In this document: piece by piece, positions 10,252 to 31,925 of the stretch
How positions within the stretch are numbered: the stretch's first letter is position 1
How the letters are laid out: the number at the start of each line of letters is the position of its first letter
Assembly (NCBI GenBank): GCA_013151875.1
Contig: JAADHL010000179.1
Span: 1 to 37,554, forward strand
From: Deltaproteobacteria bacterium
GTDB taxonomy: Bacteria; Myxococcota_A; UBA9042; DTJE01
DNA: 37,554 bases
Direction of reading: 5' to 3'
Notes under the pieces: generated by a model
Told to the model about the DNA's origin: nothing
What the model saw: the letters and a program-made list of their open reading frames with translations, nothing else
Database searches by the model: none
Translations under genes and position numbers: made by a program

Positions 10252-10283
10252 GAAATGCCAGGTGCCGGAACGCCAGGTGCCGG
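10252..10283. repeat. 15-bp-period direct repeat (GCCAGGTGCCGG x2) in a divergent promoter region
   Basis: gaaatGCCAGGTGCCGgaac-GCCAGGTGCCGgtaggaac. The two identical 12-mers are at 10257..10268 and 10272..10283, about 55-80 nt upstream of the start of the 10338 gene. Confidence 0.6.
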
Positions 10284-10337
10284 TAGGAACAGTTTGGCGG
10301 ACAGATACCACGCCGTCGGAATGGGGCTTTGTCAGGC

Positions 10338-11087
10338 ATGCGACATGACAGGACACTCGAGGAACTTTGGAACACTATTCCGGCGAGCCACGAGGTGTTT
10401 GACCCTGGTTCCATTGAAGGGCTTCCCCCTACGGCCCGCCGCTACCTTACCCACGCTCTCGCTCCGGGCGCAAAACTCTCGACCTGCGCGCGACTGAAGA
10501 TGTCGGGCACGATCAAGCTCGACCCTGGGTGGTGCGAATTCGTAGCTGAACAGGTCATTAGATGGGACCGTGGGTTCGTTTGGTCCGCGCGAGCGAAGGT
10601 AAACGGACTACCCGTCGTTGGATTTGATAGGCTTGTCGATGGCCATGGAGCCATGCGCTGGAAACTCCTCGGTCTTTTCCCTGTGATGAAAGCCGACGGT
10701 CGGGATATTGCTCGGGCTGCTGCAGGGCGCCTGCACGCAGAGGCGATCTGGCTTCCCGCTGTTCTGCTCGGTTCCGACGTCGTCTGGACCGACACAGATC
10801 AGAACCACACCACCGCCACAATCAACGCACATGGGGAACGCTCGGAACTCGACATCCAGATAGACGAAGACGGCCGGGTCCGAAGTTGTTGTCTTCAGCG
10901 CTGGGGTGACATGAACACCGGCGAGTTTTCTTTTCATCCGTTCGGCGGACTGGTTGAATCAGAACACACTTTCGAAGGCATCACGATCCCGACTCGACAT
11001 CGCGTCGGTTGGCTTTTCGGCACATCGCGTTTCGAGGACGAAGGCGAGTTTTTTCGCTGCATTCTTGAAGATGTTCAGTTCCGCTAG
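10338..11087 (+). CDS. conserved hypothetical protein (about 250 aa, soluble)
   Basis: ORF 10329..11087 (TTG at 10329, first ATG at 10338). Coding-like composition, with no motif I can name confidently. The start is uncertain. Confidence 0.6.
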   Translation: MRHDRTLEELWNTIPASHEVFDPGSIEGLPPTARRYLTHALAPGAKLSTCARLKMSGTIKLDPGWCEFVAEQVIRWDRGFVWSARAKVNGLPVVGFDRLVDGHGAMRWKLLGLFPVMKADGRDIARAAAGRLHAEAIWLPAVLLGSDVVWTDTDQNHTTATINAHGERSELDIQIDEDGRVRSCCLQRWGDMNTGEFSFHPFGGLVESEHTFEGITIPTRHRVGWLFGTSRFEDEGEFFRCILEDVQFR

Positions 11088-11120
11088 ACCATTCCAACTT
11101 TTGTCACGAGAGGTGTTCGG

Positions 11121-11741
11121 ATGAGCAGCAGATTTGACGAGGCGGCCGGGACCTGGGACGCCAGCGCGAGGCGGCGCGAGCTGGCCGGGGCCATTGGAAA
11201 GGCGATAGAGGCGGCGATTGCTCTGGACCAGGACATGGATCTGCTGGACGTGGGGGCCGGGACCGGGCTTCTGACCGGGGGGATCTGCGCGCGCGTGCGC
11301 TCGATTACGGCGCTGGACGATTCCGGCGGAATGATCGATGAATTGCGCGAGAAATCACGAAACTGGAGTGGCTGCCGGGTCGTCCCCATCAAGGCCGACA
11401 TCATGACGTTTCGCACTGATCAACGATTTCACGGGATCGTAAGTTCAATGACAATGCACCATATCAGGGACACTGACGCGTTTTTCGTAAAACTCGCGTC
11501 ACTGCTGGAACCGGGCGGCTTCGTGGCCATCGCGGACCTGGCCGACGACGACGGCACCTTCCATGAACACGGAAACGAAGGGGTCTGCCACTTCGGCTTT
11601 CCCCGGGAGGATCTGGATAGAGTCGCGCGTGGCGCGGGGTTCACCGGATGTTGCTGGGAAGTGGTCCACACCATCCGTAAGGAGGGCAGGGGCAGGTCCT
11701 ACGACGTGTTCCTGTTCACGGCCCGGCTTGAACCCGTGTAA
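11121..11741 (+). CDS. class I SAM-dependent methyltransferase
   Basis: ORF 11121..11741. Motif I is LLDVGAGTGLLT, followed by an acidic post-I residue (ITALDDSGGM) and LEPGGFVAIADL (motif IV-like). Confidence 0.8.
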   Translation: MSSRFDEAAGTWDASARRRELAGAIGKAIEAAIALDQDMDLLDVGAGTGLLTGGICARVRSITALDDSGGMIDELREKSRNWSGCRVVPIKADIMTFRTDQRFHGIVSSMTMHHIRDTDAFFVKLASLLEPGGFVAIADLADDDGTFHEHGNEGVCHFGFPREDLDRVARGAGFTGCCWEVVHTIRKEGRGRSYDVFLFTARLEPV

Positions 11742-11864
11742 CGATGGCATATTGACCCGGAAACTGATTTTGGGCCCGGTTTTTGCGGGTTACCTTCATG
11801 TCCAGGGGATTGAATAACAGGCCATGACGGGGCAGGATGTAGAGGATCAGTAGTGGAGGCCAGC

Positions 11865-12557
11865 ATGCCGAACGAAGGTGTCGAACAGATTGTCAATCGT
11901 CAGGTCGAGGTATGGAACAAAGAGCGCCGAACGCGGGATTCGGCCGGGTTGCAGGGGGATCTGAGGCCTTGCATCACGATCTCGCGGGAGTTCGGCTCCC
12001 TGGGGGCAAAGGTCGGCGAACAGGTCGCTGAGCGCCTGGGTTTTACGTTCGATGACCAGGACGTGATCACCCGCATTGCCGAAACAGAGCACGTACGCCG
12101 CGCTGTCCTGGAATCCGTTGACGAACGGGTGCGCGACCGGATGACCGAATGGATTGCCGAGCAATTCGGCGGTGGAAGGCTGACGTCGTCCAGGTTCCTG
12201 AAGGCCCTGACCAGCGTGATTCTGACGATCGGCCATCACGGAAAGGCGGTCATAATCGGTCGAGGGTCCCAGTTTCTCTTGAAACCAGAAAAGACCCTGC
12301 GCGTGCGGGCCTATGCCCCAACCGCGTTCAGGATCCAGCAGATCATGGCCGGCCGGGGCCTGTCCCGCAGTGAGGCGGAAGCCTTGGTCGACGAGGTGGA
12401 CAACCAACGACGGGACTTCTACGCAGAGCACTTCAACAAGGATTGGGCCGACCCCGGACACTACGATCTGCTCGTCAACATGGCGACGTACTCGGTGGAA
12501 CACGCGACGCAGATAGTGGTCGAGGCCTTCAATCTGCGATTCGGCCTACACGGGTGA
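11865..12557 (+). CDS. cytidylate kinase-like family (AAA/P-loop-like) protein
   Basis: ORF 11853..12557. ATG at 11865 is preceded by GGAGG with 5-nt spacing. The N-terminal ITISREFGSLGAKVGEQVAERLGFTFDDQDVI is typical of the Cytidylate_kin2-type family. Confidence 0.7.
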   Translation: MPNEGVEQIVNRQVEVWNKERRTRDSAGLQGDLRPCITISREFGSLGAKVGEQVAERLGFTFDDQDVITRIAETEHVRRAVLESVDERVRDRMTEWIAEQFGGGRLTSSRFLKALTSVILTIGHHGKAVIIGRGSQFLLKPEKTLRVRAYAPTAFRIQQIMAGRGLSRSEAEALVDEVDNQRRDFYAEHFNKDWADPGHYDLLVNMATYSVEHATQIVVEAFNLRFGLHG

Positions 12558-12570
12558 ATCCGGCGGGCGC

Positions 12571-14862
12571 TCAGTCGCCTTTGTCGTCAACAGGACCGTC
12601 CAGCAGGTAAAAACCGATTTCGAAGGGGCCGTCGACCCTTCCATAGGAAAACAGACCAGGGTCCAACCTTCCGTGGAGGGTGCGTGTCACGATGGGTTTG
12701 AGGACGTGGTCCCTGGCCGCCTCCATGCATTCGGGCCGCATCGGGCCGGTGGGCATTTGATCCTGGCTTTCTGGAAAGGTGTTGAAATAACAGCTCATAC
12801 CCAAATAGACGATCACATGGTGTTTCGGTGAAACGGCCTTTCGGTCGCCGGTCACTACTGAACCCAGGTCCACGGGTTCGAGCAGTTTTCCGGAACTCCA
12901 GATCAGGTCCACCGGAAAGGATCCGTACATATCCAGGCCGGCCAATTGCCAGCGGGGACCGTCGGGCAGGGTCGGCAACGCCTCTCTGATGAATCGCCAT
13001 TCCTGCTGGGACGCCATCATCTCAGTCACGAAACGGGCGTGCGTAAAGACCCCGGTCATCGGTGCGATCATGACCGCGGCCATCGCGATTTTGCGCAGGA
13101 AGGTCCTGCCGGTTCGCCAGTCAACGACGATCTGGAACGCCCCGGCAGCCACCATGGCGTGAAGAGGCGTTGAAAGGAGCTGGGATCGAAGATTGAACAG
13201 CGGGTTGTCGAACAGCAGTAAGGACCCGCCAGTCAGCAGCGCGACCGAAATCACGACCCACAGAGTCGCGCCGATCCGGTGCGTAAGCCCCCAGTAGAGC
13301 CCAAGCCCCCAAAGGACCCATAGCGCGACCGGAGTCGAAGCCGAATCGAACCAGACGATACCGCTAATTCCACGAAAACCGAGTTGGGGGCCGGCAACGA
13401 CGCGCGCCCTGAACTCAATAAACTGAAAGACAATCAGGGCGATCAGGACGAGTGCTCCCAGCAGGACCCTCCGGTCCTTCACGATGGATGGGATCTGTCC
13501 TGGTCGCGTCAGGGCCACGGCCAGGATTGCCATCACCGGGGCCGCCATGCCCTCCGGCCTCGACTGCGTCGCCAGGAACAGGGCAAGCAGCGCGGCCAGC
13601 AGTGTCGACAGGTTGCGCTTGTCCACGAACAGGATCACCAAAGCCACGGACCAGACAATGAACAGGGTCGCCGGCACATGGAGAACCTCCGAGCTGGAGT
13701 AACGGAGGTGCTGGGGCAGAAGGCACAGGACGAAACCCGCGAAAAGCGCCCTCGGCCAGCGACGAAACAGAGCGAAGTCCAGGGCAATCACGGCCCCCAG
13801 GGTCAGTGTGGACAGGACGGCGTTGGTCGCGAAGATGGCCTTTTCCTCGCCCCCGAAGGTCCTGTTTACGGCGGCGTACAGGACGGGACCGACGTCTCCG
13901 TACGGCAGGCTGACGTCCGCGAAGAGCCACCTGAATGGGGCCGAATAGTGGAAGAACTCGTGGATGAAGGCCCATGGGGACAAAGTCAGCCTGAGAATGA
14001 ATCCCAGGCACAGGATTCCAGCCACGCACGCCCATATCCAAAACGGCGGCGGAGCCTGCCTGATCAGGTCCCGCAGGATCCACAGCGTCGCCAGGGCCAG
14101 CGCCAGGATCATCGCCAGCAACGCCCAGTCGTAGATCAACCTGGGGTTTGGTCTGGGCTCGAACCTGTCCCTGGACACCAGTGCGCGGGCCAGGGCCTCT
14201 ACAGCGCCCTCATGTCCTTCAAGAGCCGAATCATCGGGCGGCGAACTTTTCAGCAGACAGTAGTTTTTCGTGGAAGCCATGCAGTCGCCACGTCTACCGG
14301 GCGGCACAGGGAAGATTATCGGCACCTTGACGGCGCGTCCGTTGCCGGAAAGCCGGATCGACAGGATCGCCGCTCCGGCCGGATACGTCCATGAATACCC
14401 TTTTACGACCCACCCGGCCTCCAGGTTTTCCCCGATCCTCAACGGTAGACGGCGTGTTTCGAGGGTGCGCCATATCCTGGTGCCGTCCATGCCCTCCAGT
14501 ACCGCCTTGAGCGATGCAATGATATCCGCGTCGGGCCGGGCCTTCGGCCATGTCACGCACCACGGGCCGGCCACGACGCCGTCGCAGCCCGTCAAGGGGT
14601 CCTGAAGCAATACTGAAAAGCACTGCTTGTCCGCGGTCGTACGACAGATGATGACATCATTATGGTCACGTCCGAACGACGCGCCCTGCAATCGTAGATC
14701 AGACGGTAGGCGCTTCAGTGCCCGGCCGATCTGTTCGCTCGCCTGTCTGGGAATGATCCTCCTGACGAATTCACCGTCATGGCCGCAGCCCGTCACCGTC
14801 ATCAGGATCATCAATCCAAGCGCTGCCCAAAGTCCCGCGCGCTCGGCGCCCGACATCACCAT
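12571..14862 (-). CDS. large polytopic membrane lipoprotein, candidate GT-C-fold (YfhO/ArnT/PMT-like) glycosyltransferase
   Basis: ORF 12571..14862 (ATG at 14862 or 14856; the latter overlaps the upstream stop as TGATG and has better GGAGG spacing). The N-terminal lipobox is LMTVTGC, followed by an extracytoplasmic domain of about 230 aa, about 11-12 hydrophobic helices and a soluble C-terminal domain of about 190 aa. It is the last gene of an operon with GtrA and a polyprenyl-phosphate-type GT2. The fold assignment is inferred from architecture and context only. Confidence 0.5.
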   Translation of the reverse strand: MVMSGAERAGLWAALGLMILMTVTGCGHDGEFVRRIIPRQASEQIGRALKRLPSDLRLQGASFGRDHNDVIICRTTADKQCFSVLLQDPLTGCDGVVAGPWCVTWPKARPDADIIASLKAVLEGMDGTRIWRTLETRRLPLRIGENLEAGWVVKGYSWTYPAGAAILSIRLSGNGRAVKVPIIFPVPPGRRGDCMASTKNYCLLKSSPPDDSALEGHEGAVEALARALVSRDRFEPRPNPRLIYDWALLAMILALALATLWILRDLIRQAPPPFWIWACVAGILCLGFILRLTLSPWAFIHEFFHYSAPFRWLFADVSLPYGDVGPVLYAAVNRTFGGEEKAIFATNAVLSTLTLGAVIALDFALFRRWPRALFAGFVLCLLPQHLRYSSSEVLHVPATLFIVWSVALVILFVDKRNLSTLLAALLALFLATQSRPEGMAAPVMAILAVALTRPGQIPSIVKDRRVLLGALVLIALIVFQFIEFRARVVAGPQLGFRGISGIVWFDSASTPVALWVLWGLGLYWGLTHRIGATLWVVISVALLTGGSLLLFDNPLFNLRSQLLSTPLHAMVAAGAFQIVVDWRTGRTFLRKIAMAAVMIAPMTGVFTHARFVTEMMASQQEWRFIREALPTLPDGPRWQLAGLDMYGSFPVDLIWSSGKLLEPVDLGSVVTGDRKAVSPKHHVIVYLGMSCYFNTFPESQDQMPTGPMRPECMEAARDHVLKPIVTRTLHGRLDPGLFSYGRVDGPFEIGFYLLDGPVDDKGD

Positions 14863-15488
14863 GCCTCCGGATGGCGGGTGCAGATGGCCTGGGCAAGTGG
14901 GAGCAGGTCACCAAACGCCGCGATGGCATGGACGGGCGCGCCCTGCAGCTCCGGCGAGACCAGGCATACCTTGAAGCCCTCGCCAGCGCGTTGAAGGAGT
15001 TCGCGGGACACCGGCAACCCGTGGAAGCAGTCCACCCAGAGCCAGCGGACCCGGCCGCGAAACGCATCAAGCAGTTCAGGCGGCTCGTACCTGGACAGCC
15101 TTACGGCAAATCGTTCCTCGCCTTGCCGTACCGTCCAGTGCACCAGGGTGGGCATCTGCGAATCCAGAAAGAACCAGTCTTCCAGGCCATGGTCCCGAAG
15201 CAGACGCATGACGACCGGCTCGACCCCGTCCACCTTGACATTGAGCACGATGGGACCCTTTAGGCCCAGCGCCGTGAACCGGTCCAGCCAGGCGTCGAAC
15301 GGATCGCCGGTTTCCCAGGGATCGTGCGCCAGGATGATGGAGCCTTTGCCGTCACCTGTCCTCAGGTCGATTTCAACGCCATGAGACGGGTCCACACCGC
15401 CCAGGTCCTTGATCCGGTTGACCCGATGGCGGATGAAGACGGGGTTGCTGCGGGCGGTCTTTTCACGATCTGATTGCCCTGCGTCCAT
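14856..15488 (-). CDS. glycerophosphodiester phosphodiesterase-like (GDPD / PI-PLC X-domain superfamily) protein
   Basis: ORF 14856..15488. FIRHRVN...GVEIDLRTGDGKGSIILAHDP matches the HR...E-x-D...HD pattern of GDPD-like enzymes. Confidence 0.55.
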   Translation of the reverse strand: MDAGQSDREKTARSNPVFIRHRVNRIKDLGGVDPSHGVEIDLRTGDGKGSIILAHDPWETGDPFDAWLDRFTALGLKGPIVLNVKVDGVEPVVMRLLRDHGLEDWFFLDSQMPTLVHWTVRQGEERFAVRLSRYEPPELLDAFRGRVRWLWVDCFHGLPVSRELLQRAGEGFKVCLVSPELQGAPVHAIAAFGDLLPLAQAICTRHPEAW

Positions 15489-15494
15489 GATGGC

Positions 15495-16214
15495 CTAGCC
15501 TTTTAGTCTGCGTTTCAAACCGGCGCTGTATTTGAGCGTGCGTAGGATGAATTTCCACTTGGAGCGCCAATCCACGTTCCATTTGGAATGGCCGTGAATC
15601 CGTTTGGGGAACCGCACGGGAAACCTGATCACGTCCAATCCCCGCTTCCGGGCGAGCACGAACGCGTACAGGTCCAATGAAAAGTCGTGAGGCGGGTCCT
15701 CCCAGGATTCAAAAAAGCTCCGGTGGAACAAGTTCGGCTGGGCATTGATGTCCCGCAGGTTCACGCCCAGATACAGCGATTCGAACAGACCCATGCCCAG
15801 CGTGAAGAACACATCGGAAACGGGGCGACCTTTGCGGTTTCCCTTGACGAACGACCTTTGCGGTTCCGGAGCGCTTTCGATGAGTCGCAGGGCCTTGATG
15901 GTGTCTTTGGGGTCGGTCTGCATGTCCGCGTGGGTCCAGCCCAGGAACTCTCCGTTGGCCTCTTGCAGGCCGCTCAGGATGCCGAATCCGTAGCCCTGAT
16001 TGACATCCACTCGAACGGTTCGTGCAAACGGGTATCCGGCAAGCAGGTCCCGCAGGACTTCCGGCGTGTCGTCCGTGGAGCCGTTGTCCACCAGGACCAC
16101 CTCGATATCTTTACTTTCCACCTCTTTGTCGCCCACGACTTCGCCGAACCTGTCGAGGATCAGCGGAATGTTCCTAGCCTCGTTGTAGCAGGGGATGACC
16201 ACGGACAGTTTCAT
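15495..16214 (-). CDS. family 2 glycosyltransferase, polyprenyl-phosphate sugar synthase type (DPM1/CsbB/GtrB-like, soluble form)
   Basis: Internal start of ORF 15495..16562. ATG at 16214 gives MKLSVVIPCYNEARNIP, followed by VLVDNGSTDDT, GYGFGILSGL and THADMQTDP. The start overlaps the GtrA stop (ATGA at 16211..16214). Confidence 0.85.
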   Translation of the reverse strand: MKLSVVIPCYNEARNIPLILDRFGEVVGDKEVESKDIEVVLVDNGSTDDTPEVLRDLLAGYPFARTVRVDVNQGYGFGILSGLQEANGEFLGWTHADMQTDPKDTIKALRLIESAPEPQRSFVKGNRKGRPVSDVFFTLGMGLFESLYLGVNLRDINAQPNLFHRSFFESWEDPPHDFSLDLYAFVLARKRGLDVIRFPVRFPKRIHGHSKWNVDWRSKWKFILRTLKYSAGLKRRLKG

Positions 16215-16633
16215 TGTGATTTGCCTCTGAATACCCAGAACTTCTGGCCCAGAAAGTTCAGGACCGTAGAACACCCGGTGGCCACCACGAAGGCCGGGAT
16301 CGTGGCGCCCTCGAACAGCATCAGGACCAGGTGGTTCATGCCCACGTTGACGCCCAGGGCGGCCGTGTACAGCGCGAAAAAGGACCCCATTTCGACGAAT
16401 GACCTTTGTCTCGATCCGAAGGTCCAGAACTTGTTCACCACATAGGCTACCAGTGTTCCGGTGACGAACGACGCGAATTTGGGTCCGTCGTGCCCCATGT
16501 CCCGCCCGACCATGGAAACGAGCAGGAAATAGACCAGGGCGTCCGCGCCGGTGGCGCAGCACCCGGCCACGATGAAACGGCGCACTTGACGAGCTGTGAC
16601 CTGATCAAAACGCTTCGAAGGAAGCCCTTTCAT
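16211..16633 (-). CDS. GtrA-family small membrane protein (candidate lipid-linked sugar flippase)
   Basis: ORF 16211..16633, 140 aa with 4 hydrophobic helices. RRFIVAGCCATGADALVYFLL, YVVNKFWTFG and LNFLGQKFWVF are typical GtrA-like motifs. Confidence 0.85.
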   Translation of the reverse strand: MKGLPSKRFDQVTARQVRRFIVAGCCATGADALVYFLLVSMVGRDMGHDGPKFASFVTGTLVAYVVNKFWTFGSRQRSFVEMGSFFALYTAALGVNVGMNHLVLMLFEGATIPAFVVATGCSTVLNFLGQKFWVFRGKSQ

Positions 16634-16641
16634 TACGTGTC

Positions 16642-17436
16642 TTAATCCGCCCGTTCGCCGTGGTCTCGGAAATCGCGAAGCACCTTTAGGAAATAGGATT
16701 CCCAGTACTCATATGTCCTCAGGTCGTCCGGCGTCCCCCAGCAGACGTAGTGGTCGACTTCGAACACCTTGACCCGAACGCCCGCCTTGATGAGCACCTC
16801 CATGGTCACGTCCACGTAATACTCGCCGTTGGTGCTGAGCCCCTCGGCCATCTGTCGCTTGACCGCGTCGAAAAAGAGGGACGCCTTTCGAAACCAGAAG
16901 GTGCCTACGATGGCATGGTCCTGAAGAGGATTGTCGCTGATTGGGATCTTGCACGAGATGCCCAGGGCATTGTCGTGTTCGTCCGTTCGGACCCATCCGT
17001 ATCCCCGCGGGTTTCGTGAGACTGCGGCGTTGTTCCTGAAGGTCCAGATCATGGCTTCGGTGTCGGGATCGGCCCTGAGGCGATCGAATGATTCGCGGTT
17101 CCACAGCATCGAGTTGTCGCACGCACCGATCGTCAGGGGCGCTTCACTGTCCACGAAGGCCTCGGCCTCCAGACATGTGCATGCCTGTCCCTGGGTCATA
17201 TGGTCCAGCACAACGACCCGGCACCCAGGAAAATGGCTTTCCAGCACGCGGTCCAGACCGAATCGGTCGACGTGGTCCCGTTGGCACACAAATACCATGT
17301 CGGCCGCGCTGGGCAACGCCTTGGTTGCCTGTACCGCCATAGGCAATCCGGACACCGGCAGCAGGGGCTTTGGAAGTTCGTAGCCTTCCCTGGAAAAACG
17401 GACCCCAGCGCCGGCCATGGGAACCAGGATGGTCAT
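16642..17436 (-). CDS. sugar-phosphate nucleotidyltransferase-like protein
   Basis: ORF 16642..17436. N-terminal MTILVPMAGAGVRFSREGYELPKPLLPV (G-x-G-x-R plus K-P-L signature). C-terminal CWGTPDDLRTYEYW resembles the W-x-D-x-GTP-x-D motif region of NDP-sugar pyrophosphorylases. The start overlaps the upstream stop (ATGA). Confidence 0.75.
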   Translation of the reverse strand: MTILVPMAGAGVRFSREGYELPKPLLPVSGLPMAVQATKALPSAADMVFVCQRDHVDRFGLDRVLESHFPGCRVVVLDHMTQGQACTCLEAEAFVDSEAPLTIGACDNSMLWNRESFDRLRADPDTEAMIWTFRNNAAVSRNPRGYGWVRTDEHDNALGISCKIPISDNPLQDHAIVGTFWFRKASLFFDAVKRQMAEGLSTNGEYYVDVTMEVLIKAGVRVKVFEVDHYVCWGTPDDLRTYEYWESYFLKVLRDFRDHGERAD

Positions 17437-18206
17437 GTCTGTCGCCCCCGTACCGCCTTGAAATATTTAGCCCACATGCGATACGCGGCCAAGTGTACCG
17501 GATTGCCCCAATGCAGGAAATAGTCGAGGTCCCAGGTGCGTATGTCCAGGCCGTCATCGATCAACAACTGGACGGCCATGCTCACGTAGACGCCCCCGTC
17601 AAGGGGGACGCACTCGTCCATGGCGCGCCGCATGCAACTGCGGGCGTCCCTCCATCTACGGAACCAGTACGCGCCCGCGGACCAGTGGCCTGATCGCGGG
17701 TCCTTGACAAAGGCATGCTTTTCACGGATTTCGAGCGCCCGCCCCCTGTCGTCGATCCGTAGCCCCGCGTACCGCCCGGGGCCGATCAGGTGGGGGTGAA
17801 ACCCGGAGCAGGTCAGGATGCAGCCGTCGCAGCGGCTTTTTGCGACGAATCGCTTGAATGCGGGGTAGTCCCACCAGGCCGAGAAGTCGCAATGAGACAC
17901 AAGGACAGATTCGTCGTCGTTGATGAACCCGTCCGCTTTCAACACGGTTTCCACGGGTCCCAGGTCATGGCGTTTTACGGCTATGATGGGCGCCCCGGGA
18001 CGCAGCCCGGACAGCACCTTGCCCAGATCGGATCGGTCCAGATGGTCCTTGCGGCACAGGAACACGAAATCGGTTTCGCCCGGATAAAGGTCCACGACGT
18101 GCGATACCATGGGCCGCCCGTCCACCTCGATCATGGGCACTATGTCGGTGTTCTGCGATTCGAGAAACCGATCACCGGGACCGGCCATTGCGATGACGAC
18201 CTTCAT
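17433..18206 (-). CDS. second, divergent nucleotidyltransferase-like protein
   Basis: ORF 17433..18206. MKVVIAMAGPGDRF...IVPMIEVDGRPM, with the same overall length and a similar C-terminal HWGNPVHLAAYRMW as the neighbour. The start overlaps the upstream stop (ATGA). Confidence 0.65.
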   Translation of the reverse strand: MKVVIAMAGPGDRFLESQNTDIVPMIEVDGRPMVSHVVDLYPGETDFVFLCRKDHLDRSDLGKVLSGLRPGAPIIAVKRHDLGPVETVLKADGFINDDESVLVSHCDFSAWWDYPAFKRFVAKSRCDGCILTCSGFHPHLIGPGRYAGLRIDDRGRALEIREKHAFVKDPRSGHWSAGAYWFRRWRDARSCMRRAMDECVPLDGGVYVSMAVQLLIDDGLDIRTWDLDYFLHWGNPVHLAAYRMWAKYFKAVRGRQT

Positions 18207-18709
18207 GCGCTTTCAACCCGGAATCGGCCCCATTCCCAGGATACAAGGTACCTGCACTCTTCATTGGGCAAGAATCTGATTCTGCTTGCGTCGCCGATCA
18301 GGCGAAGGACCCTTGCGTGGGCCGAGGCGAATTCTTCCCGCAGGCCCTGCTTCCCCTGGGTTTCGCCAGAAAGCAGAACTCCAAGGCCCCGCACGACTGC
18401 AAACCTGGGCAGGTATCCGTTCTTTTCCCTGAACCGCCCAACGCCCGAGCGAACCATGGCTTCGTCATCACCTGGTTCGACGGCCAGCGGCAATTCCCCC
18501 ATGTGCACCACATGGTCGGGGTGCAGGGAACCCTTCATGGTCGCGTCCAGAAGGGTCGGCTCGAAGGCCAATGAGCAGGCATCCCGATCTGAAGCCCAAC
18601 GCACGTCAACGTCGGAGGAGGTGTCGGACTCGGCAGCAAGCGCATTCCGCAGCCACTGGGCATGGGGCATGGGGTCCTGGTGAAGCGGTTGGCTGTTTCG
18701 CCCGGACAC
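18203..18709 (-). CDS. class II aldolase/adducin-type domain, C-terminal half (split from 18606..19361)
   Basis: ORF 18203..18709 (GTG start in the track). HPDHVVHMGELPL, PRFAVVRGLGVLLSGET and ECRYLVSWEWGRF match, from memory, the second half of the aldolase domain of YuxG/RhaD-type bifunctional aldolase/SDR proteins. Confidence 0.65.
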   Translation of the reverse strand: MSGRNSQPLHQDPMPHAQWLRNALAAESDTSSDVDVRWASDRDACSLAFEPTLLDATMKGSLHPDHVVHMGELPLAVEPGDDEAMVRSGVGRFREKNGYLPRFAVVRGLGVLLSGETQGKQGLREEFASAHARVLRLIGDASRIRFLPNEECRYLVSWEWGRFRVESA

Positions 18710-19361
18710 CTGCGTCGCCGAAATGATCGCGCAGCACGGAAAAGACCTCCCGGCGCAACTTTTCGATGTTTTCGGGGGAATCTCCAGTCAATATCAGGCC
18801 GTGGTTCTGCATGAAAAACCACTGCGGCTTTGTCCCCGTGCGCCGCGCGTGTTCCTCGATGCCGCGCACGAACTCGATTGTCAGGAAAAGACCCGGCTTG
18901 GCGTAAGGTATCCACAGGAAACGCCTGTCGTCGAAAAGCCGTGCGGCGACCTCCGGTCCGTCACGCAGGCAGACAAGGGCCAAGGCATGTACTGGGTGCG
19001 TATGAATTGCCAGCCGCCCCGGCAGCATCGCGTGGATCATGGTTTCGATGGAAGGTCGCCCGGATGTCGGGCTGGTGCGGGACTCTAGCACGCGCCGCAG
19101 GACTGCCTGGTCCAGACGTGCTTGAGGAAGCCCGGACAAAGAACGATCGCTCACGATGGATCGGATGGCGTCCAGGTCCACTTGGACGAACCCTTCGGGA
19201 AAACGGGCGGATTTCAGCCTGACACCGGACAGCGTCACCCACATTCCGCCGTTGCCGGGCTTGAACGAGGCGTTCCCGCCCCCGCCTTGCACCATGTCGG
19301 GGTCCGCCCCATGACTCCGGCACATCTCTTCCAGTTGAGTCTGTTCACGATTGACGGACAT
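18606..19361 (-). CDS. class II aldolase/adducin-type domain, N-terminal half
   Basis: ORF 18606..19403. I prefer ATG at 19361 (AAGGAAG upstream; 17-nt overlap with the SGNH gene). Motifs: QGGGGNASFK, RPSIETMIHAMLP, HTHPVHALAL, FLWIPYAKPG, MQNHGLILTG. After DHFGDAGV the frame runs into a non-homologous Pro/Ala/Cys tail that overlaps ORF 18203..18709 by 104 nt. Confidence 0.7.
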   Translation of the reverse strand: MSVNREQTQLEEMCRSHGADPDMVQGGGGNASFKPGNGGMWVTLSGVRLKSARFPEGFVQVDLDAIRSIVSDRSLSGLPQARLDQAVLRRVLESRTSPTSGRPSIETMIHAMLPGRLAIHTHPVHALALVCLRDGPEVAARLFDDRRFLWIPYAKPGLFLTIEFVRGIEEHARRTGTKPQWFFMQNHGLILTGDSPENIEKLRREVFSVLRDHFGDAGVRAKQPTASPGPHAPCPVAAECACCRVRHLLRR

Positions 19362-20928
19362 GGCTTCCTTCAACATCCTCGCGGCGCTCCAGGTAGTCGG
19401 CAAAGCCCTTGAGAAGGGCCTTGTAGAAGAGGTTGCCGATCACCTCGTAGCCCGCGGGGGTGGCGTGCCGGTAGTCGCCCCAGCCGAGGCGGGGTTTCGA
19501 CTTGTACCAGCGGCCCATGGCGCCGGGTCCTCCCATTGCGCTGAACGTGTCGAAGAAGGCGCAGCCCTGGGCCATGGCCACCTTGCGCTGGACCTTGACG
19601 ATCCGCCTCAGCACGGGAATCGTCCTGACCCTGCCCCTGGGCCCGACCTCCCCCTGGTCAAGGGGAGCCATCAACAGACAGGCCGCCCCGGGCTTTCCCC
19701 GTCGCATGAATTGCACGACTTCAGTGAGGTTCTTTTCGTACCACTTGCTGCTCATCTTCCTGTCGCCCGCCTCGTTGCCCCCGAAAGCGAGTATCAGGAG
19801 GTCGGGGTCGCGGTGTCTTACCTGGGCGTCGAAGTGGTCCGGGTCGGCGTTCAGCATGCGGGCCGCGCGCGCCCCCACGATGCCCAGCGAGTCATAGACC
19901 ACGCCTGGGCCGGGCCTCTCCATTACCACCCCGTACATGCGGACCTCGCCGTGACCGATGGCCCTGATGGATAGTTCGTGCGGGCCGTCGTCCACGTCGA
20001 TCCGCTTCCAGCGGTCCTCGGTCGAGGGGGCCTTTGTGGACAGCACGTTCGCCTTGCCTCCATCCACCTTCCATTCCAGATCGCCCCCGCCCTTGTGGGC
20101 CTGATAGAACAGCTCGAAACGGCTCACGCTGGTGCCGATTGGGCCTTCCTTTACCGTTCCGTAGGTGGCCCGGCCGCCGCCCCAGGAACCATAGGACACG
20201 CCCCCGTAACCGTAGCGCCCGTCACGCCTTTGGCCCCGGATGATTGGATACAGCTTCCACCCGCTGCTTTTGAAGACCACGTCCTTGTGGCGGTAGGGCA
20301 TGTAGCCCTTGGCCGTGAGAATGAACCCATGGCCCGCGTCGCCGAAGCGCTTTTGCAGCCTGCGGCGCAGGGTGGCTGTTATGTCGTCCGCCGCTATGGT
20401 CGAGTCCCCCCAGTGCGCGATCCGGGTTATGGCGCCGGCGCGGCCCTCGGCCGTCCTTTTCAGGGCCTTGTAGAAGGGACGCATGGCAACGCCGCCCGGG
20501 TCCTCGATTTCACGAACCAGGCCCTTCAGTTCCCTGGGCTCGACCGACACCTCAACGGAGACACCGGCCTGATCCGCCACGGAGTCATCCCCCAGGTTCT
20601 GGGCCAGGGCCGCGCCCAGTTCCGCGGCCAGGGACTCCCGCGCCCTGTCGCCCGTGAGCGCCTCTTTTCCGGTCCCGCCGATCCCGGGCGCGCCTCCGTC
20701 GCCCGCGGCGTTCCCATCCTCGAACGTGAACAGGCGCAAAAGGGGCACCGGCTCACCGGGCACCCACGGGCGGTAGTCCGACAGGAACGGCAATACGTAC
20801 GTCAGACCGGCGCATGCCAGCAGGGTGACCCCCACCACCGCCAGACGGGGCAGACCCGGCCGGTCCGTCTCGTCAACCTCGTCACGCCTCTCCGGTCGGC
20901 TGCTCCAGTTTTCCCACCACAGGTCCAT
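19345..20928 (-). CDS. membrane-anchored SGNH/GDSL-family protein, partner of the MBOAT acyltransferase (PatB/AlgJ-X/DltD-like role)
   Basis: ORF 19345..20928. N-terminal anchor LAVVGVTLLACAGLTYVLPFL. SGNH blocks: IAHWGDSTIAAD, ILAFGGNEAGD, GDYRHAT. It lies 16 nt downstream of the MBOAT gene. Confidence 0.75.
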   Translation of the reverse strand: MDLWWENWSSRPERRDEVDETDRPGLPRLAVVGVTLLACAGLTYVLPFLSDYRPWVPGEPVPLLRLFTFEDGNAAGDGGAPGIGGTGKEALTGDRARESLAAELGAALAQNLGDDSVADQAGVSVEVSVEPRELKGLVREIEDPGGVAMRPFYKALKRTAEGRAGAITRIAHWGDSTIAADDITATLRRRLQKRFGDAGHGFILTAKGYMPYRHKDVVFKSSGWKLYPIIRGQRRDGRYGYGGVSYGSWGGGRATYGTVKEGPIGTSVSRFELFYQAHKGGGDLEWKVDGGKANVLSTKAPSTEDRWKRIDVDDGPHELSIRAIGHGEVRMYGVVMERPGPGVVYDSLGIVGARAARMLNADPDHFDAQVRHRDPDLLILAFGGNEAGDRKMSSKWYEKNLTEVVQFMRRGKPGAACLLMAPLDQGEVGPRGRVRTIPVLRRIVKVQRKVAMAQGCAFFDTFSAMGGPGAMGRWYKSKPRLGWGDYRHATPAGYEVIGNLFYKALLKGFADYLERREDVEGSHVRQS

Positions 20929-20944
20929 TGACTTCCTTTTTCCC

Positions 20945-22366
20945 TCAGAACTGGAAATAGATATACGGAACCACCTGCGTGGAGGCGATTTCCATCAACG
21001 CTCCGCCCAGGACGGCCAGGATCACCCCCTGGGCCACGGCAGGCAGCCTCATGAAACCATGCTTCACGAAATCCACCAGAGCCTGGGGCGTCCAGTGGAT
21101 CAGGTAAGCGATCGCCAGCACGGCCCAGACCCCTGCCGAGACCTGGGCCACGGAGGACGTGCCCTGAAACAACTGGGCCGTGACCTTGCCCGCGGTCGTC
21201 AGGTCCGGCGACCTGAACAGGATCCTCGACAGGACCGTGAAATGGAACATCGCAGCCACCTTGATGACATGCATCCACCTGGGGTCCAGGGTCCTGGAGG
21301 TCCGGCCGGATCGCTTGTAGAAGAATCGGTGCGCCACCATTGCGCAACCATGGATCGCCCCATAGACCACGAAGGTCCAGCCCGCCCCGTGCCACAGTCC
21401 AATCAGGAACAGGGTCAGCCACAGATTGAAATACGTGCGGGCGGGGCTGCCCCTGGAGCCTCCCAGGGGAAAATAGAGGTAGTCGCGAAGCCACGACGAA
21501 AGGGTCATGTGCCAGCGCCTCCAGAACTCGGCCGGGCTGCTGGCCTGGTACGGGCGCTCGAAGTTTTCGGGCAGGCGGAACCCCATGAGCCTGGCCGAGC
21601 CCCGCGCCACGTCCGTGTACCCCGAGAAGTCGCAGTACAGTTGCATGGTGTAGGCATAGAGGCCGATCATCACCTCCACGGACGTGAAGGCCGCGGGGTT
21701 GTCGAACACACGGTCGGCGAGGTTTATCGCCAGGAAATCGGCCACGATCACCTTCTTGACCAGACCGCGCAGTATCAGGAACAGGCCCTCGCCCACCATG
21801 TCCGAGTTGATGTACGGGCGCTTGATTATCTGCGGCAGGAAGTCGCGGGCGCGCACGATGGGGCCGGCCACTAGCTGGGGAAAGTACGTGACGTAAAAGG
21901 CGTAGCGCAGGAAGTTGCGTTCGGGCTCGATGACGCCTCGGTACACGTCTATTGTGTAGCTGAGAGTCTGGAACGTGTAGAACGAGATCCCCACCGGCAG
22001 CAGCAGGGCCAGATGCGCCTCGGGGATCTGGATGCCCACCACGGACAGTGTGTCATGGACCGCGGACGCGAAGAAGTTGAAGTACTTGAAGGTCCCCAGC
22101 ATCCCGAGGTTGCCCACCAGGCTGACCATGAGCCAGGCCTTCTTCGCGCGCCGGCCGTTCGCCCGGTGCAGCATCAGGGCGACCGTGTAGTCGAGGACCG
22201 TGGAGGCAAGGATCAGGGTGATGTATTTGACGTTCCACGCCATGTAAAAGCGGCACGAAGCCAGAAATGTGAAAAGGATCCGCGTCCGTTGCATTCGCGC
22301 GAGGGCCCAATAGACCACCAGCACGACCATCAGAAACAGGATGTATTCGAGGCTGTGGAAAAGCAT
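20945..22366 (-). CDS. MBOAT-family membrane-bound O-acyltransferase (AlgI/PatA/DltB-like)
   Basis: ORF 20945..22366, 473 aa and polytopic. MLFHSLEYILFL is a typical N-terminus. FWRRWHMTLSSWLRDYLYFPLGG and LIGLWHGAGW carry the conserved MBOAT histidine region. Confidence 0.9.
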   Translation of the reverse strand: MLFHSLEYILFLMVVLVVYWALARMQRTRILFTFLASCRFYMAWNVKYITLILASTVLDYTVALMLHRANGRRAKKAWLMVSLVGNLGMLGTFKYFNFFASAVHDTLSVVGIQIPEAHLALLLPVGISFYTFQTLSYTIDVYRGVIEPERNFLRYAFYVTYFPQLVAGPIVRARDFLPQIIKRPYINSDMVGEGLFLILRGLVKKVIVADFLAINLADRVFDNPAAFTSVEVMIGLYAYTMQLYCDFSGYTDVARGSARLMGFRLPENFERPYQASSPAEFWRRWHMTLSSWLRDYLYFPLGGSRGSPARTYFNLWLTLFLIGLWHGAGWTFVVYGAIHGCAMVAHRFFYKRSGRTSRTLDPRWMHVIKVAAMFHFTVLSRILFRSPDLTTAGKVTAQLFQGTSSVAQVSAGVWAVLAIAYLIHWTPQALVDFVKHGFMRLPAVAQGVILAVLGGALMEIASTQVVPYIYFQF

Positions 22367-22487
22367 TTCGTCCGTACCGTACCGGCAATCATCTTATCAG
22401 CGCCGGGAAGGGCGCACAAAGAGAACGCAACCTGGGCTATTATTCCGGCAGTTCGAGCCTTGTCGGATTCTTTATGCGGTACCTGAA

Positions 22488-23405
22488 ATGAAACGCTTGT
22501 TCATGTCGATGCTGATCGGATTTGCCGTCGTTCCCGTCACTTTATCCGCCAGGACCATGGAAAGCGCCGTGGGGTGGAAGACTGCTCGCCCGGTCAAGGC
22601 CGTGGTGGTCGGGGCCTCGATCGCGGCCTATTACGCAGGCAACTTCGGGGAACAGCTCCAGGGGGCCTGCTCGAACCTGGAGGTCGTCAACCTGGCCCAC
22701 CAGAAGGACAAGGCCCGCGAGATAAGGCACCGGTTCGAGGAAAAATTCCTGAAAAACCGCGGCCTGTTCAGGCGCGCGCCCGGACGGGAATACTGGGCCC
22801 TGGTGCTGGGCGGGCTCAATGAGATATGGGCCCCCGAGCGCGTGAACCTGCAACTGTTGGTGATGTTTCGCAAGGCCCATGCTGCGGGCGTGAAGGTGGC
22901 GGGGCTGAGCCTGACGCCGTGGGGCAGCGACGGGGACCGCAGGAGGTGGCGGGGAATCGCCGGACTGCAGACCCACCTGGACACCCGCAAGGTAGTGGAT
23001 TTCGTCCTGGGACGCCTGTCGCCGAAGGAGGCCCTGGGCCGGTACGCGGGCGACATGCGGCAGTGGGCCGATGGCGATCTGCCCGATTTGAAGGTGGACC
23101 TGTGGGACTCCGATCTGCGTGATCGCAATGCGCGGATCCGTCCAGCGGCGCCCCTGAAAAAGGCATTGCATCGCAGCCTGAAATGGAGGCGTCGGGTGGG
23201 GCGTCTGCCCAAAAATGAACGTAAGGCCCAGTGGAACAGGCTGCTGGACACCGCGCGCAAGGTCCCCAGGCACTACCTGCGTCGCGACCTGCGCTCTTTT
23301 GACAGCACCCACCCCAATCGCGAGGGCCACCGCATCATCGCCGCTCGCATCTGCGCTCATGCACCGGCCTCGTGGGGCTGCGACTGCTCGGCACTGGACA
23401 GATAA
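22488..23405 (+). CDS. secreted SGNH-like protein, divergent from the MBOAT operon
   Basis: Internal ATG at 22488 of ORF 22341..23405 gives the signal peptide MKRLFMSMLIGFAVVPVTLSA. Motifs: VVVGASIAAYY (block I-like, GAS), LGGLNE (block III-like), DSTHPNREGH (DxxH). Confidence 0.55.
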   Translation: MKRLFMSMLIGFAVVPVTLSARTMESAVGWKTARPVKAVVVGASIAAYYAGNFGEQLQGACSNLEVVNLAHQKDKAREIRHRFEEKFLKNRGLFRRAPGREYWALVLGGLNEIWAPERVNLQLLVMFRKAHAAGVKVAGLSLTPWGSDGDRRRWRGIAGLQTHLDTRKVVDFVLGRLSPKEALGRYAGDMRQWADGDLPDLKVDLWDSDLRDRNARIRPAAPLKKALHRSLKWRRRVGRLPKNERKAQWNRLLDTARKVPRHYLRRDLRSFDSTHPNREGHRIIAARICAHAPASWGCDCSALDR

Positions 23406-23487
23406 AAGGATGACGCACGCTCTGGACGTCGCGGCAGATGCGGACTAAGTTACGGGCAGTTTTTTGCGCACCGGCAAGGAGGGTTTC

Positions 23488-24252
23488 ATGGAAATCAAAG
23501 ACAAGGTAGCGGTGGTAACTGGAGGCGCTTCGGGCATTGGCTTGTCAATCTGCAAGCTGTTCGCCTCGAAGGGCGCCAAGGTCGTGGTGGCGGATATCCA
23601 GGGCGTGGACGAGGCCGTGGAGGGGCTGAAGGCGGCCGGCGGAACTGCCGCAGGAAAGGTCTGCAACGTGGCCAAGGAAGACGACGTGGTGGCCCTGATG
23701 CAGTTCGCGGTGGATACCTTTGGCGGGCTGGACGTGGCAGTGGCCAACGCGGGCATCCTGCGCGACGGCCTGTTGTTGAAGGTGGACCGGGAAACAAAGA
23801 AGGTGGCGGCCACCCTGACCCTGGACAAGTGGCAGCAGGTCATCGACGTCAACCTGACCGGCGTGTTCCTGACCGGCCGGGAGGCCGCGAAACAGATGGT
23901 GAACCTGGGCACCGGCGGCGTCATGATCCTGATGAGCAGCATATCCAGGGAAGGCAACTTCGGCCAGACCAACTATTCGGCAGCCAAGGCGGGTGTCGCC
24001 TCGATGGCGGTTGCATGGTCCAAGGAACTGGCCCGGTTCAAGATCAGGGTCAACTCCATCGCCCCTGGGTTCATAGGCACGCCCATGGTGCTGAAGGACA
24101 TGAAGCCCGAGGCCCTGGAAAAATTCAAGAAGATCATTCCCATCGGCCGCTTGGGCGAGCCGGAAGAGATAGCGCAGACAGCCGCCTACATCGTCGACTG
24201 CGACCTGGTTACCGGCGTGTGCGTCGAGGCCACCGGTGGCATGAGGCTGTAG
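23488..24252 (+). CDS. short-chain dehydrogenase/reductase (3-oxoacyl-ACP reductase-like)
   Basis: ATG at 23488 (AAGGAGGG upstream) within ORF 23464..24252. Motifs: [14 protein letters not shown], catalytic S...YSAAK, and [15 protein letters not shown]. Confidence 0.9.
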
Positions 24253-24284
24253 GAGGATCGCCAGCGGCGCCACGGAGATTCGAA

Positions 24285-25337
24285 ATGACTGACGACCCGG
24301 TCCGTGGATGGGCGTTCGCCCGATACTGCATCCCCCTGGTCGTGTTGCTGGCGACCGTCGCCGGATGCAGGGACCATGTCGGGGCCGGACTCAAGATGCC
24401 GCCCGTGCTCGTGGCCACCCAGAAGGCAGCCCGGTCCACCATGGAGGACACCAGGCGCTTTACCGGCTTTACCTACCCGTGGGAGGCCCGCGGCGTGGGG
24501 TTCATGGTGGCCGGTCGCGTGACCTCCATCAAGGTGGACGAAGGGGACCACGTAAAAAAGGGTCAGACCCTGGCCACGCTGGACCCCAGCGACTACGCCC
24601 TTCAGGAACAGCTTGCGCGAATCCAGGTCGAGGCCCTGGAGCCGAACTTCCAGCGCGTCGACGGCCTGGTGAAGGAAAAGGCCCTCTCCGAGGCAAAGCT
24701 GGATGAACTCAGGGGAAAGTACCAGGCCGCTCTCACCCAGCGCAAACAGGCCCGCCGCCAGGTGGAGTACACGCGACTCGCGGCGCCGTCGGACGGCGTG
24801 GTCATGGAGCGCAAGACCAGCGTCGGTCAGGTGATCGGCGCGGGGATGCCAGCGGTAGTCCTGCTGGACCTGTCCAGGCTCAAGGTGAAATTCGGCGTCA
24901 CGCAGCAGGACCTGCACCTGTTCGAAAAGGGCCGCGAACTGCCGCTGACATTCCCCGGAGTAGAGCGGGAATACACCGGCCGCATCGACGGCGTGTCGGT
25001 GGTCCCGGATCCAAAGACCAGGACCTACGAGGTGAGCGTCGCGGTGGATAACGGCGATGGTCAACTCAGGGCCGGCATGCTTTCGCACGTGAGTGTCGCC
25101 ACCAGGAAGGTAAGCGGCATCTTCGTGCCCCTGCTCGCCGTCAAGCGGGACAGGGGCCAAGGGACCGTGGTCTACTTGTTCGACCCTGACACCCGCAAAG
25201 TGGTTCAGCGGCCAGTGAAACTGGGTGCAAGGTTCAAGGACCGCGTCCTTGTGACCGAGGGTCTGAAGGACGGCGATGAGTTGATCGTCGAGGGCCAGGG
25301 CTTCGTCAACCCGGGCGACGAGGTCAGAGCCAGATGA
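24285..25337 (+). CDS. efflux RND transporter periplasmic adaptor (membrane fusion protein), lipoprotein
   Basis: Internal ATG at 24285 of ORF 23829..25337. Lipobox LLATVAGC. A biotinyl/lipoyl-like hairpin (VDEGDHVKKGQTLATLDPSDY), a coiled-coil and beta-barrel segments are typical of the HlyD/AcrA family. The stop overlaps the pump start (ATGA). Confidence 0.9.
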   Translation: MTDDPVRGWAFARYCIPLVVLLATVAGCRDHVGAGLKMPPVLVATQKAARSTMEDTRRFTGFTYPWEARGVGFMVAGRVTSIKVDEGDHVKKGQTLATLDPSDYALQEQLARIQVEALEPNFQRVDGLVKEKALSEAKLDELRGKYQAALTQRKQARRQVEYTRLAAPSDGVVMERKTSVGQVIGAGMPAVVLLDLSRLKVKFGVTQQDLHLFEKGRELPLTFPGVEREYTGRIDGVSVVPDPKTRTYEVSVAVDNGDGQLRAGMLSHVSVATRKVSGIFVPLLAVKRDRGQGTVVYLFDPDTRKVVQRPVKLGARFKDRVLVTEGLKDGDELIVEGQGFVNPGDEVRAR

Positions 25338-31923: not shown

Positions 31924-31925
31924 GG

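Follow-up and report, generated by a model that had tools for sequence, protein, structure and literature searches.

Positions 12571-22366 of contig JAADHL010000179.1 from a Deltaproteobacteria bacterium (the 37.5-kb stretch as a whole is termed the window) hold an unbroken, co-directional series of minus-strand open reading frames (ORFs). In gene order these encode a membrane O-acyltransferase of the MBOAT family, an SGNH protein, a class II aldolase-like protein, two nucleotidyltransferase (NTase)-like proteins termed NT1 and NT2, a GtrA-family protein, a family 2 glycosyltransferase (GT2), a 210-aa protein resembling glycerophosphodiester phosphodiesterases (GDPDs), and a 763-aa membrane protein with a predicted GT-C glycosyltransferase fold. 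The aldolase-like, twin NTase, GtrA, GT2 and GDPD-like genes form a conserved, uncharacterised cassette that is widespread, and are not an ad hoc fusion. This cassette, which holds the core of the operon, is of more interest than the combination of three envelope-modification functions that an earlier note on the same DNA had put forward. The block is probably an operon for the extracytoplasmic, three-component glycosylation of an envelope polymer, and includes an O-acyltransferase pair; we give this reading a probability of about 0.6. It draws on the tight packing of the genes, the GT2, GtrA, GT-C and GDPD assignments, the conservation of the cassette, its gene fusions, and synteny with a plasmid of Azospirillum.

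Of all cassette members the 210-aa gene is conserved best. It occurs at no fewer than 575 loci in a collection that represents each species by one genome; these come from Bdellovibrionota, Myxococcota, Elusimicrobiota, Bacteroidota, Burkholderiales, Planctomycetota, Acidobacteriota and others. Neighbours within ±10 kb of this gene were surveyed at 84 loci. GT2 is present at 70 of these, NTases at 66, a kinase protein of ~680 aa that is a phosphoribulokinase (PRK) fusion at 62, the aldolase-like gene at 58 and a HAD hydrolase at 56, followed by GtrA at 17 and MBOAT at three. All-against-all clustering revealed no near-universal neighbours besides those in this count. Gene order is shuffled among phyla and the content is retained. 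The earlier note had regarded the glycosylation and O-acylation machineries as fused here with an activation branch and a phosphodiesterase. A one-off fusion of activation branch, GT2, GtrA and phosphodiesterase is not compatible with at least 575 loci and with parts that are joined by gene fusions; the neighbourhood conservation it proposed to check is borne out by the core content kept across the 84 loci. Its statement that it recognised no described system with this combination stands, in that the gene set was not found assigned to any characterised pathway in the literature or in annotation.

Gene fusions link several of the components. NTase-NTase-GT2 fusions of ~760-790 aa occur in L049 (7755-10031), L052 (782-3148), L054 (7596-9935) and also L037, and a 442-aa GtrA::Aldolase_II fusion in L056 (11226-12554) puts the aldolase/epimerase-like domain on a membrane protein. 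The GT-C-like::PRK fusion of ~680 aa is found in 58 loci (e.g. L058 10594-12672 and L087 9456-11438). Its N-terminal domain has 9-10 transmembrane (TM) segments and weak matches just to the GT-C clan (PIG-U, GT87, ALG3, Alg6/8), and its C-terminal domain scores 212 bits against phosphoribulokinase, for which the cut-off is 236. PGAP names this protein 'uridine kinase' or 'phosphoribulokinase', and there are non-autotrophs among its carriers. The HAD hydrolase of the cassette reaches 167 bits against the haloarchaeal ribulose-1,5-bisphosphate (RuBP) 5-phosphatase, below the equivalog cut-off. Two other apparent fusions, both from longest-ORF lists, were discarded as artefacts: the parts of a GDPD-like::aldolase fusion in L046 lie in different frames, and for a GT2::GT-C fusion in L050 Pfam finds no GT2 in the ORF.

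Another large polytopic protein without a Pfam match is present in 60 of 88 loci, and these proteins are plausible acceptor-specific GT-Cs. The Pfam-negative proteins of ~530-590 aa found beside many cassettes are not detected by the hidden Markov model (HMM) of the window GT-C family, and a broader HMM of this family shows weak matches to polytopic proteins of ~560-700 aa in L035, L054, L072 and L081. In an hhalign comparison of profiles, the membrane domain of the PRK fusion gave no match to the GT-C family of the window (E 0.6), and the two GT-C-like components thus have no detectable relation.

Plasmids also carry the cassette. Escherichia coli plasmid p5-S1-CAM-01-A (NZ_CP145712.1, L087), a 33-kb IncR plasmid, has a full eight-gene cassette at 6022-14984 that adjoins IS26, with the aldolase gene downstream; just two of 5426 complete E. 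coli genomes contain the cassette. On Azospirillum brasilense plasmid p5 (NZ_CP032350.1, 42469-49853) it lies beside O-antigen-type genes. Here the order aldolase-like, NTase, NTase, GtrA, GT2, GDPD-like is that of the window, and the PRK fusion stands at the place of the window GT-C gene. Hirschia baltica pHbal01 (L089) is a further carrier, and product names on all plasmid copies are generic. The plasmid cassettes resemble the window in their homologous NTases, GtrA, GT2, GDPD-like and aldolase-like proteins, but differ in having the GT-C-like::PRK fusion, HAD and fused NTases, and in the absence of MBOAT and SGNH. In pHbal01 a gene of the UDP-glucuronic acid decarboxylase family (10229-11182) is situated between GtrA and GT2. 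This hints at pentose (xylose-type) chemistry, at a single locus.

Table 1. Features of the block at 12571-22366 and its upstream intergenic region
Feature	Coordinates	Strand	Basis or remark
Divergent intergenic region, 121 nt	22367-22487	.	Sole candidate site for a promoter of the block
MBOAT-family membrane O-acyltransferase, 473 aa, first gene	20945..22366	-	Pfam MBOAT 83.8 bits, 1.8e-23
Membrane-anchored periplasmic SGNH protein, 527 aa	19345..20928	-	Lipase_GDSL_2 55.1 bits, 1.8e-14
N-terminal, catalytic part of the class II aldolase-like protein, 251 aa (ATG at 19361)	18606..19361	-	Aldolase_II 61.7 bits, 1.1e-16
Aldolase-like protein, C-terminal part, 168-aa ORF, other frame	18203..18709	-	No Pfam match; alignment to single-ORF homologues
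NT1, nucleotidyltransferase-like paralogue, 257 aa	17433..18206	-	NTP_transf_3 21.6 bits vs cut-off 27
NT2, nucleotidyltransferase-like, 264 aa	16642..17436	-	NTP_transf_3 24.4 bits vs cut-off 27; GxGxR...PKPL intact
GtrA-family small membrane protein, 140 aa	16211..16633	-	GtrA_DPMS_TM 70.5 bits, 1.9e-19, model positions 1-117/117
Soluble GT2, polyprenyl-phosphate glycosyltransferase type, 239 aa	15495..16214	-	Glycos_transf_2 75.6 bits, 5.6e-21
Cytoplasmic GDPD/PI-PLC-like TIM-barrel protein, 210 aa	14856..15488	-	AlphaFold2 fold; no sequence-family match
Polytopic membrane protein, 763 aa, lipobox, predicted GT-C-fold core	12571..14862	-	AlphaFold/Foldseek; no HMM match

The features of the block are listed in Table 1. 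The tightly packed minus-strand block described earlier is confirmed in strand, coordinates and junctions, but its nine genes comprise ten ORFs, the aldolase-like gene being spread over two reading frames. Every junction is an overlap or a gap of 16 nt or less. The MBOAT stop (20945) and the SGNH ATG (20928) are separated by 16 nt that include an AGGAAG Shine-Dalgarno sequence; the SGNH stop (19345) and the aldolase ATG (19361) overlap by 17 nt; ATGA overlaps are at 18203/18206, 17433/17436 and 16211/16214; gaps of 8 nt (NT2 stop 16642 to GtrA ATG 16633) and 6 nt (GT2 stop 15495 to the 210-aa gene ATG 15488) follow, and the 763-aa gene starts at TGATG, 14856, or at ATG, 14862. In the divergent intergenic region there is one weak sigma-70-like match (minus strand, 22466-22439), and shuffled sequences give as many. 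A scan of the window with consensus promoters and terminators yielded nothing above shuffled sequence, and an Rfam search of the window, 22367-22487 included, found no family. The GC content of the block is that of its surroundings. The MBOAT, SGNH, Aldolase_II, GtrA and GT2 family calls are all above Pfam gathering cut-offs.

The 210-aa protein had been termed a GDPD-like phosphodiesterase, which holds at the level of the fold but not at that of sequence families. No GDPD HMM (PF03009) matches; there is no Pfam match even at E<=1 and none in NCBIfam, and PDB searches with the sequence and with a profile of the family found no meaningful match. The AlphaFold2 model (predicted local distance difference test, pLDDT, 95) has GDPDs as its top 17 Foldseek matches, with query-normalised TM-scores of 0.62-0.73, the best being 2o55 (0.73). 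H21 R22, E39 D41 and H55 D56 are invariant or nearly so among 64 sequences of the family, and these HR / ExD / HD invariants appear to fit the GDPD family. The segment VEIDLR..LAHD aligns to IEIDLR..LVHD of one GDPD, at low hhalign probability. There is no signal peptide. All 1524 homologues are without names in the search set, and PGAP calls relatives 'PI-PLC/GDPD family protein', PI-PLC being phosphatidylinositol-specific phospholipase C. The modelled fold allows no more than the suggestion that the substrate is probably a phosphodiester with a hydroxyl next to it.

The GtrA protein, with its full-length match and the ATGA overlap of its gene with that of GT2, has the properties of a Gtr-type component, and may be either a flippase or a membrane partner of GT2. 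The closest solved relatives of the GT2 are the Pyrococcus furiosus dolichol-phosphate mannose synthase (DPMS; 5mlz, 2.2e-10, whole catalytic domain), then ArnC and the GtrB protein sll0501. This agrees with the polyprenyl-phosphate type proposed earlier, and GT2 appears to be the polyprenyl-phosphate sugar synthase expected of a Gtr-type system.

The 763-aa protein matches no Pfam or NCBIfam model, the Pfam GT-C families included. The earlier note had named its fold as one of the points on which its reading would stand or fall. In a Foldseek comparison of the AlphaFold2 model (pLDDT 72, predicted TM-score 0.69) with the PDB, the top 31 matches are all GT-C proteins (probability 1.0, target-normalised TM-scores <=0.55); these include STT3/PglB (5e-7), ArnT (0.53), AftA, DPY19, ALG9/12, Emb and AftD. 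The predicted fold is thus that of a GT-C transferase. The protein consists of a lipobox, a periplasmic N-domain, the GT-C core and a C-terminal domain with two invariant Cys residues. Its N-terminus (...LMILMTVTGC) and those of the two closest homologues have a Cys-containing lipobox, as anticipated for a lipoprotein. Family invariants are E300, H303, Y319, G320, P381, H383, R385, S387, E390, Q431, R433 and E435. There are six close homologues, and a profile search finds 1679 representatives.

The first two genes appear to encode an O-acylation pair. The MBOAT protein shows RWH and LWHG motifs and has DltB (6bug, 2.3e-26) as closest solved relative, but its 183.7 bits against the DltB equivalog HMM TIGR04091 are under the cut-off of 375. 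The SGNH protein has a single N-terminal TM segment at residues 25-43 and an inserted beta-rich domain, keeps the GDS, GGNE and DxxH catalytic blocks, and is the probable partner of MBOAT. Its closest solved relative is the peptidoglycan O-acetylesterase Ape1 of Neisseria meningitidis (4k3u, 1.1e-17), which aligns over residues 135-494, i.e. both the catalytic and the inserted domains. No AMP-binding or carrier-protein gene (DltA/DltC), as a DltABCD system has, is among the window ORFs scanned, and no clear PatB orthologue was identified. The earlier note had made the pair part of the system; both members are present by HMM, but the pair lies outside the conserved core. In L012, L014 and L031, all from Bdellovibrionota, an MBOAT gene and that of its partner lie immediately next to the cassette, the L012 partner being AlgX-like, and AT3 acyltransferases are near the cassette in six loci. 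The link of O-acylation to the cassette is therefore recurrent but infrequent. The MBOAT pairs in the three Bdellovibrionota loci, together with AT3 in six more, argue that the product or target of the cassette is often O-acylated.

Two other SGNH-type sequences are found in the window. A second Ape1-like protein of 471 aa (7029-8444, plus strand) is 38% identical over 394 aa to the operon SGNH protein; it has GAS in place of GDS at block I and no adjoining MBOAT. The ORF at 22488-23405 (plus strand), divergent from the MBOAT gene, encodes a secreted protein of 305 aa with a sub-threshold GDSL match (E 1.3e-3) and a C-terminal DSTHPNREGH, and may represent a third SGNH-type enzyme flanking the MBOAT gene.

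Alternatively, two independent systems may share one transcription unit: MBOAT and the Ape1-like SGNH protein, possibly with the other SGNH genes of the window, would O-acetylate or de-O-acetylate peptidoglycan in the manner of PatA/PatB/Ape1, and the downstream genes would glycosylate a different polymer. The alignment to Ape1 over two domains, the paralogue at 7029-8444, the weak SGNH-like ORF divergent from MBOAT, and the absence of MBOAT and SGNH from 84 of 88 cassette loci are what one would expect from such an arrangement. However, the start of the aldolase gene overlaps the SGNH stop, MBOAT pairs lie inside or against the cassette in three Bdellovibrionota loci with differing partner types, AT3 acyltransferases occur at six more, and the PatB component has no clear counterpart. 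We consider two separate systems possible, if on the unlikely side.

The aldolase-like gene and the two NTases raise the question of how complete the window copy is. Single-ORF homologues of the aldolase-like protein (~340 aa) align to the upstream frame with residues ~6-203 and to the downstream frame with residues 213-342. The frame changes between ~18708 and 18619, where the two ORFs overlap by ~100 nt (18606-18709), in a poorly conserved linker; the window protein would exceed its orthologues by ~45 aa. The N-terminal part keeps the GGN.S.K, PSxET..H, HxH and NHG motifs conserved in 33 orthologues, and with its HMM match and retained HxH/NHG it belongs to the class II aldolase/adducin family. 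A conserved PD..V motif and an Arg are kept in the C-terminal part. The intact gene assumed earlier is thus correct as to family but not as to reading frame, and the break may be a frameshift, a split gene or possibly an assembly error.

The two NTase-like proteins described earlier are themselves below the NTP_transf_3 cut-off, but fused NTases whose halves are homologous to the pair exceed it. NT2 has weak full-length matches to RmlA, AglF and GlmU-type enzymes, departs at one of 29 conserved positions, and aligns to the stand-alone NTase of L004 with 354 bits. NT1 shares 35% identity with the N-terminal half of the fused L001 NTase. Of 49 positions with >=90% conservation among 34 NT1-type orthologues it departs at 13, the signature Lys included (K23V), and it reads DIVPMI for DIKPLI and GPGDRF for GLGKRF. 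NT1 could be in decay, or could act as a partner without catalytic activity.

No PRK or HAD homologue was detected anywhere in the window. The window GT-C family is beside the 210-aa gene solely in L001, L004, L007 and L050; a few other loci hold weakly matching relatives, and the closest relatives, L004 and L007, hold a minimal set of NT2, GtrA, GT2, GT-C and GDPD-like genes. The window operon is a reduced cassette, without kinase and HAD, with a degenerate NT1 and a frame-split aldolase gene, and with a GT-C of a different family. Because of these properties and the minimal sets of L004 and L007, it looks intermediate between the full and the minimal cassette, with MBOAT and SGNH added in front. 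The gene downstream of the block, a convergent P-loop kinase of the Cytidylate_kin2 family (11853-12557, plus strand), was considered as a stand-in kinase and rejected; at other loci nothing connects it with the cassette.

The reduction raises the question of decay, in which only NT2, GtrA, GT2, the GDPD-like protein and GT-C would work, and the aldolase and NT1 would be relics. The split aldolase gene, the contrast between NT1 (13/49) and NT2 (1/29) in departures from conserved positions, the lack of PRK and HAD in the window, and L004 and L007, which hold exactly the minimal set, all point in this direction. On the other hand, both aldolase halves keep their conserved motifs, so the frame change may stem from an assembly error, or the split gene may be viable; the NT1 ORF is intact and is ATGA-coupled to both of its neighbours, and PRK and HAD could lie beyond the window. 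On balance partial decay seems doubtful.

For the preferred reading, envelope glycosylation with an attached O-acyltransferase pair, the following steps can be envisaged. NT2 would make a nucleotide-activated donor in the cytoplasm, perhaps with help from the aldolase/epimerase-like protein and the degenerate NT1, and the cytoplasmic GDPD-like enzyme would act on a phosphodiester intermediate. GT2, translationally coupled to GtrA and with it resembling a split DPMS-type synthase, would load the sugar onto undecaprenyl phosphate. GtrA would flip the lipid-linked sugar or help to present it, and the lipoprotein-anchored GT-C would move the sugar to a periplasmic acceptor. MBOAT would pass an acyl group, probably acetyl, over the membrane, and the Ape1-like SGNH protein would place it on an extracytoplasmic glycan or strip it from one.

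Several findings weigh against this reading. The gene arrangement, the families and folds, the conservation of the cassette and the fusions are observed, but every chemical step, the donor and the acceptor we infer from sequence and models. We know of no precedent for a cytoplasmic phosphodiesterase in a Gtr-type route. Both NTases are under the Pfam cut-off and NT1 is without the signature Lys, the aldolase gene is frame-split, and, since neither the kinase nor HAD is in the window, part of the precursor branch may be missing from it. Just four of 88 loci show MBOAT linked to the cassette, and its SGNH partner resembles a peptidoglycan enzyme. In addition, the 763-aa model was built from an alignment of seven sequences, and its query-normalised TM-scores to GT-C proteins are just 0.34-0.40.

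As to the donor, the trio of PRK, RuBP-phosphatase-like HAD and aldolase-like protein in the full cassette suggests, as a lead only, derivation from a pentulose phosphate (ribulose-5-phosphate). This can be extended to a more general proposal: the cassette would be an unrecognised, widespread mobile pathway that makes a lipid-linked donor from ribulose-5-phosphate via RuBP and ribulose-1-phosphate, yielding an activated ketopentose or a derivative of it. The GDPD-like protein would carry out new chemistry on a phosphodiester or cyclic phosphate, some steps would take place on a membrane-bound carrier, and the window operon would be a form reduced in its own lineage, in which the GT-C was exchanged and an O-acylation pair acquired. 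We regard this proposal as quite unlikely in its entirety. A phosphodiester-linked, teichoic-acid-like substituent such as a polyol or ketose phosphate in place of a plain glycosyl residue, with the NTases making a CDP-alcohol-type donor and the GDPD-like enzyme forming or trimming the phosphodiester, is distinctly improbable: faint IspD/TarI-like matches in fused NTases, a GDPD fold with conserved metal and acid-base motif, and the non-anomeric phosphate of ribulose-1-phosphate, the expected product of PRK and HAD in the full cassette, are in its favour, but the transferase beside GtrA is a GT-A-fold GT2 near DPMS and ArnC and not of the TagF, LicD or LtaS type, and no teichoic-acid polymerase or CDP-glycerol/ribitol synthase equivalog was matched. 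Nothing supports a teichoic-acid-type polymer, which the earlier note had suggested by likening the arrangement to such decoration.

The combination of GtrA-, GtrB- and GtrC-type proteins is known from Shigella and Salmonella O-antigen modification, from CsbB-GtcA-YfhO, which acts on lipoteichoic acid, and from the mycobacterial PpgS-Rv3789-Rv3779. In the block, too, the genes for a probable polyprenyl-phosphate sugar synthase (GT2), a GtrA-family member and a transferase of predicted GT-C fold lie together, and its GT2 is short and soluble, as is PpgS. However, the block also encodes paired NTases, a class II aldolase-like protein and a GDPD-like protein of the cytoplasm, none of which is found in Gtr systems, and its GT-C has no Pfam GT-C family and begins with a lipobox and a periplasmic domain. 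The arnBCADTEF operon for addition of 4-amino-4-deoxy-L-arabinose to lipid A also unites a dedicated donor-synthesis branch with a flippase, the GT2 ArnC and the GT-C ArnT, and ArnC and ArnT are among the best matches of the GT2 and GT-C of the block. It differs in that the GT2 scores 45.7 bits against the ArnC equivalog NF007986, which has a cut-off of 529, there are no ArnA, ArnB or ArnD matches, and the flippase of the block is GtrA and not ArnE/F.

Mycobacterial decaprenylphosphoryl arabinose (DPA) is synthesized from phosphoribosyl pyrophosphate (PRPP) via a UbiA-type synthase, with Rv3789. The pentofuranose three-component systems PPPRS-MATE-GT136 likewise start from PRPP, with a UbiA-type synthase and a MATE protein (Kelly et al. 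2024, PMC11127046). In these systems a lipid-linked pentose donor is made in the cytoplasm with an auxiliary phosphatase and an epimerase, flipped, and used by a GT-C, which parallels the block; the PRK, HAD and aldolase-like proteins of the full cassette also hint at pentose chemistry. In contrast, the entry enzyme of the block is a GT2 fed by NTases, and no PRPP transferase is present. The haloarchaeal non-carboxylating pentose bisphosphate pathway, with its RuBP 5-phosphatase and ribulose-1-phosphate aldolase (PMC9700705), is comparable to the HAD, kinase and class II aldolase-family protein of the full cassette. Yet that pathway is catabolic and soluble, whereas the cassette enzymes are linked or fused to membrane glycosylation parts and score below equivalog cut-offs; the kinase and HAD, moreover, are missing from the window.

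With respect to O-acylation, the block resembles PatA/PatB/Ape1, AlgI/AlgJ/AlgX and DltB/DltD in that its MBOAT precedes a periplasmic SGNH protein; the latter is nearest to Ape1 and the former to DltB. The block differs in that DltA and DltC are absent, the DltB cut-off is not reached, and the pair is co-operonic with a glycosylation cassette.

Other genes of the window include a Ser/Thr kinase with tetratricopeptide repeats and a resistance-nodulation-division pump, which together with the nearest relatives point to a diderm akin to Myxococcota or 'Deltaproteobacteria'. An asparagine-synthase-like amidotransferase of 841 aa with a long N-terminal extension (30028-33032, minus strand) adjoins a second GT2, and 10 other loci likewise have Asn-synthase-like genes close to the cassette. 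The longest-ORF call of an HlyD-family gene (23829-25337) is overlapped by a short-chain dehydrogenase ORF (23464-24252, plus strand), and the HlyD start is therefore probably further downstream. Class II aldolase domains such as that of the operon are often fused to short-chain dehydrogenases elsewhere. Between phosphate-transporter genes and the operon lie a DUF6544/DUF6920 protein and then an S-adenosylmethionine methyltransferase (10329-11741, plus strand).

Three-component periplasmic glycosylation drives diversity of surface antigens, phage resistance and antimicrobial resistance. To our knowledge, the known routes use ordinary nucleotide sugars or PRPP, and we know of no glycosylation route in which the GDPD-like enzyme, the paired NTases, the aldolase-like protein, HAD or the GT-C-like::PRK fusion has an assigned role. 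The E. coli plasmid cassette (L087) would serve as a ready experimental model. Resolving the product of the cassette would name a family of >1500 'hypothetical' proteins, would probably reveal a new activated sugar or substituent, and would explain the phosphoribulokinase-like genes of non-autotrophs. The window, for its part, illustrates how such a cassette can lose genes and be recombined with another GT-C and with an O-acyltransferase pair.

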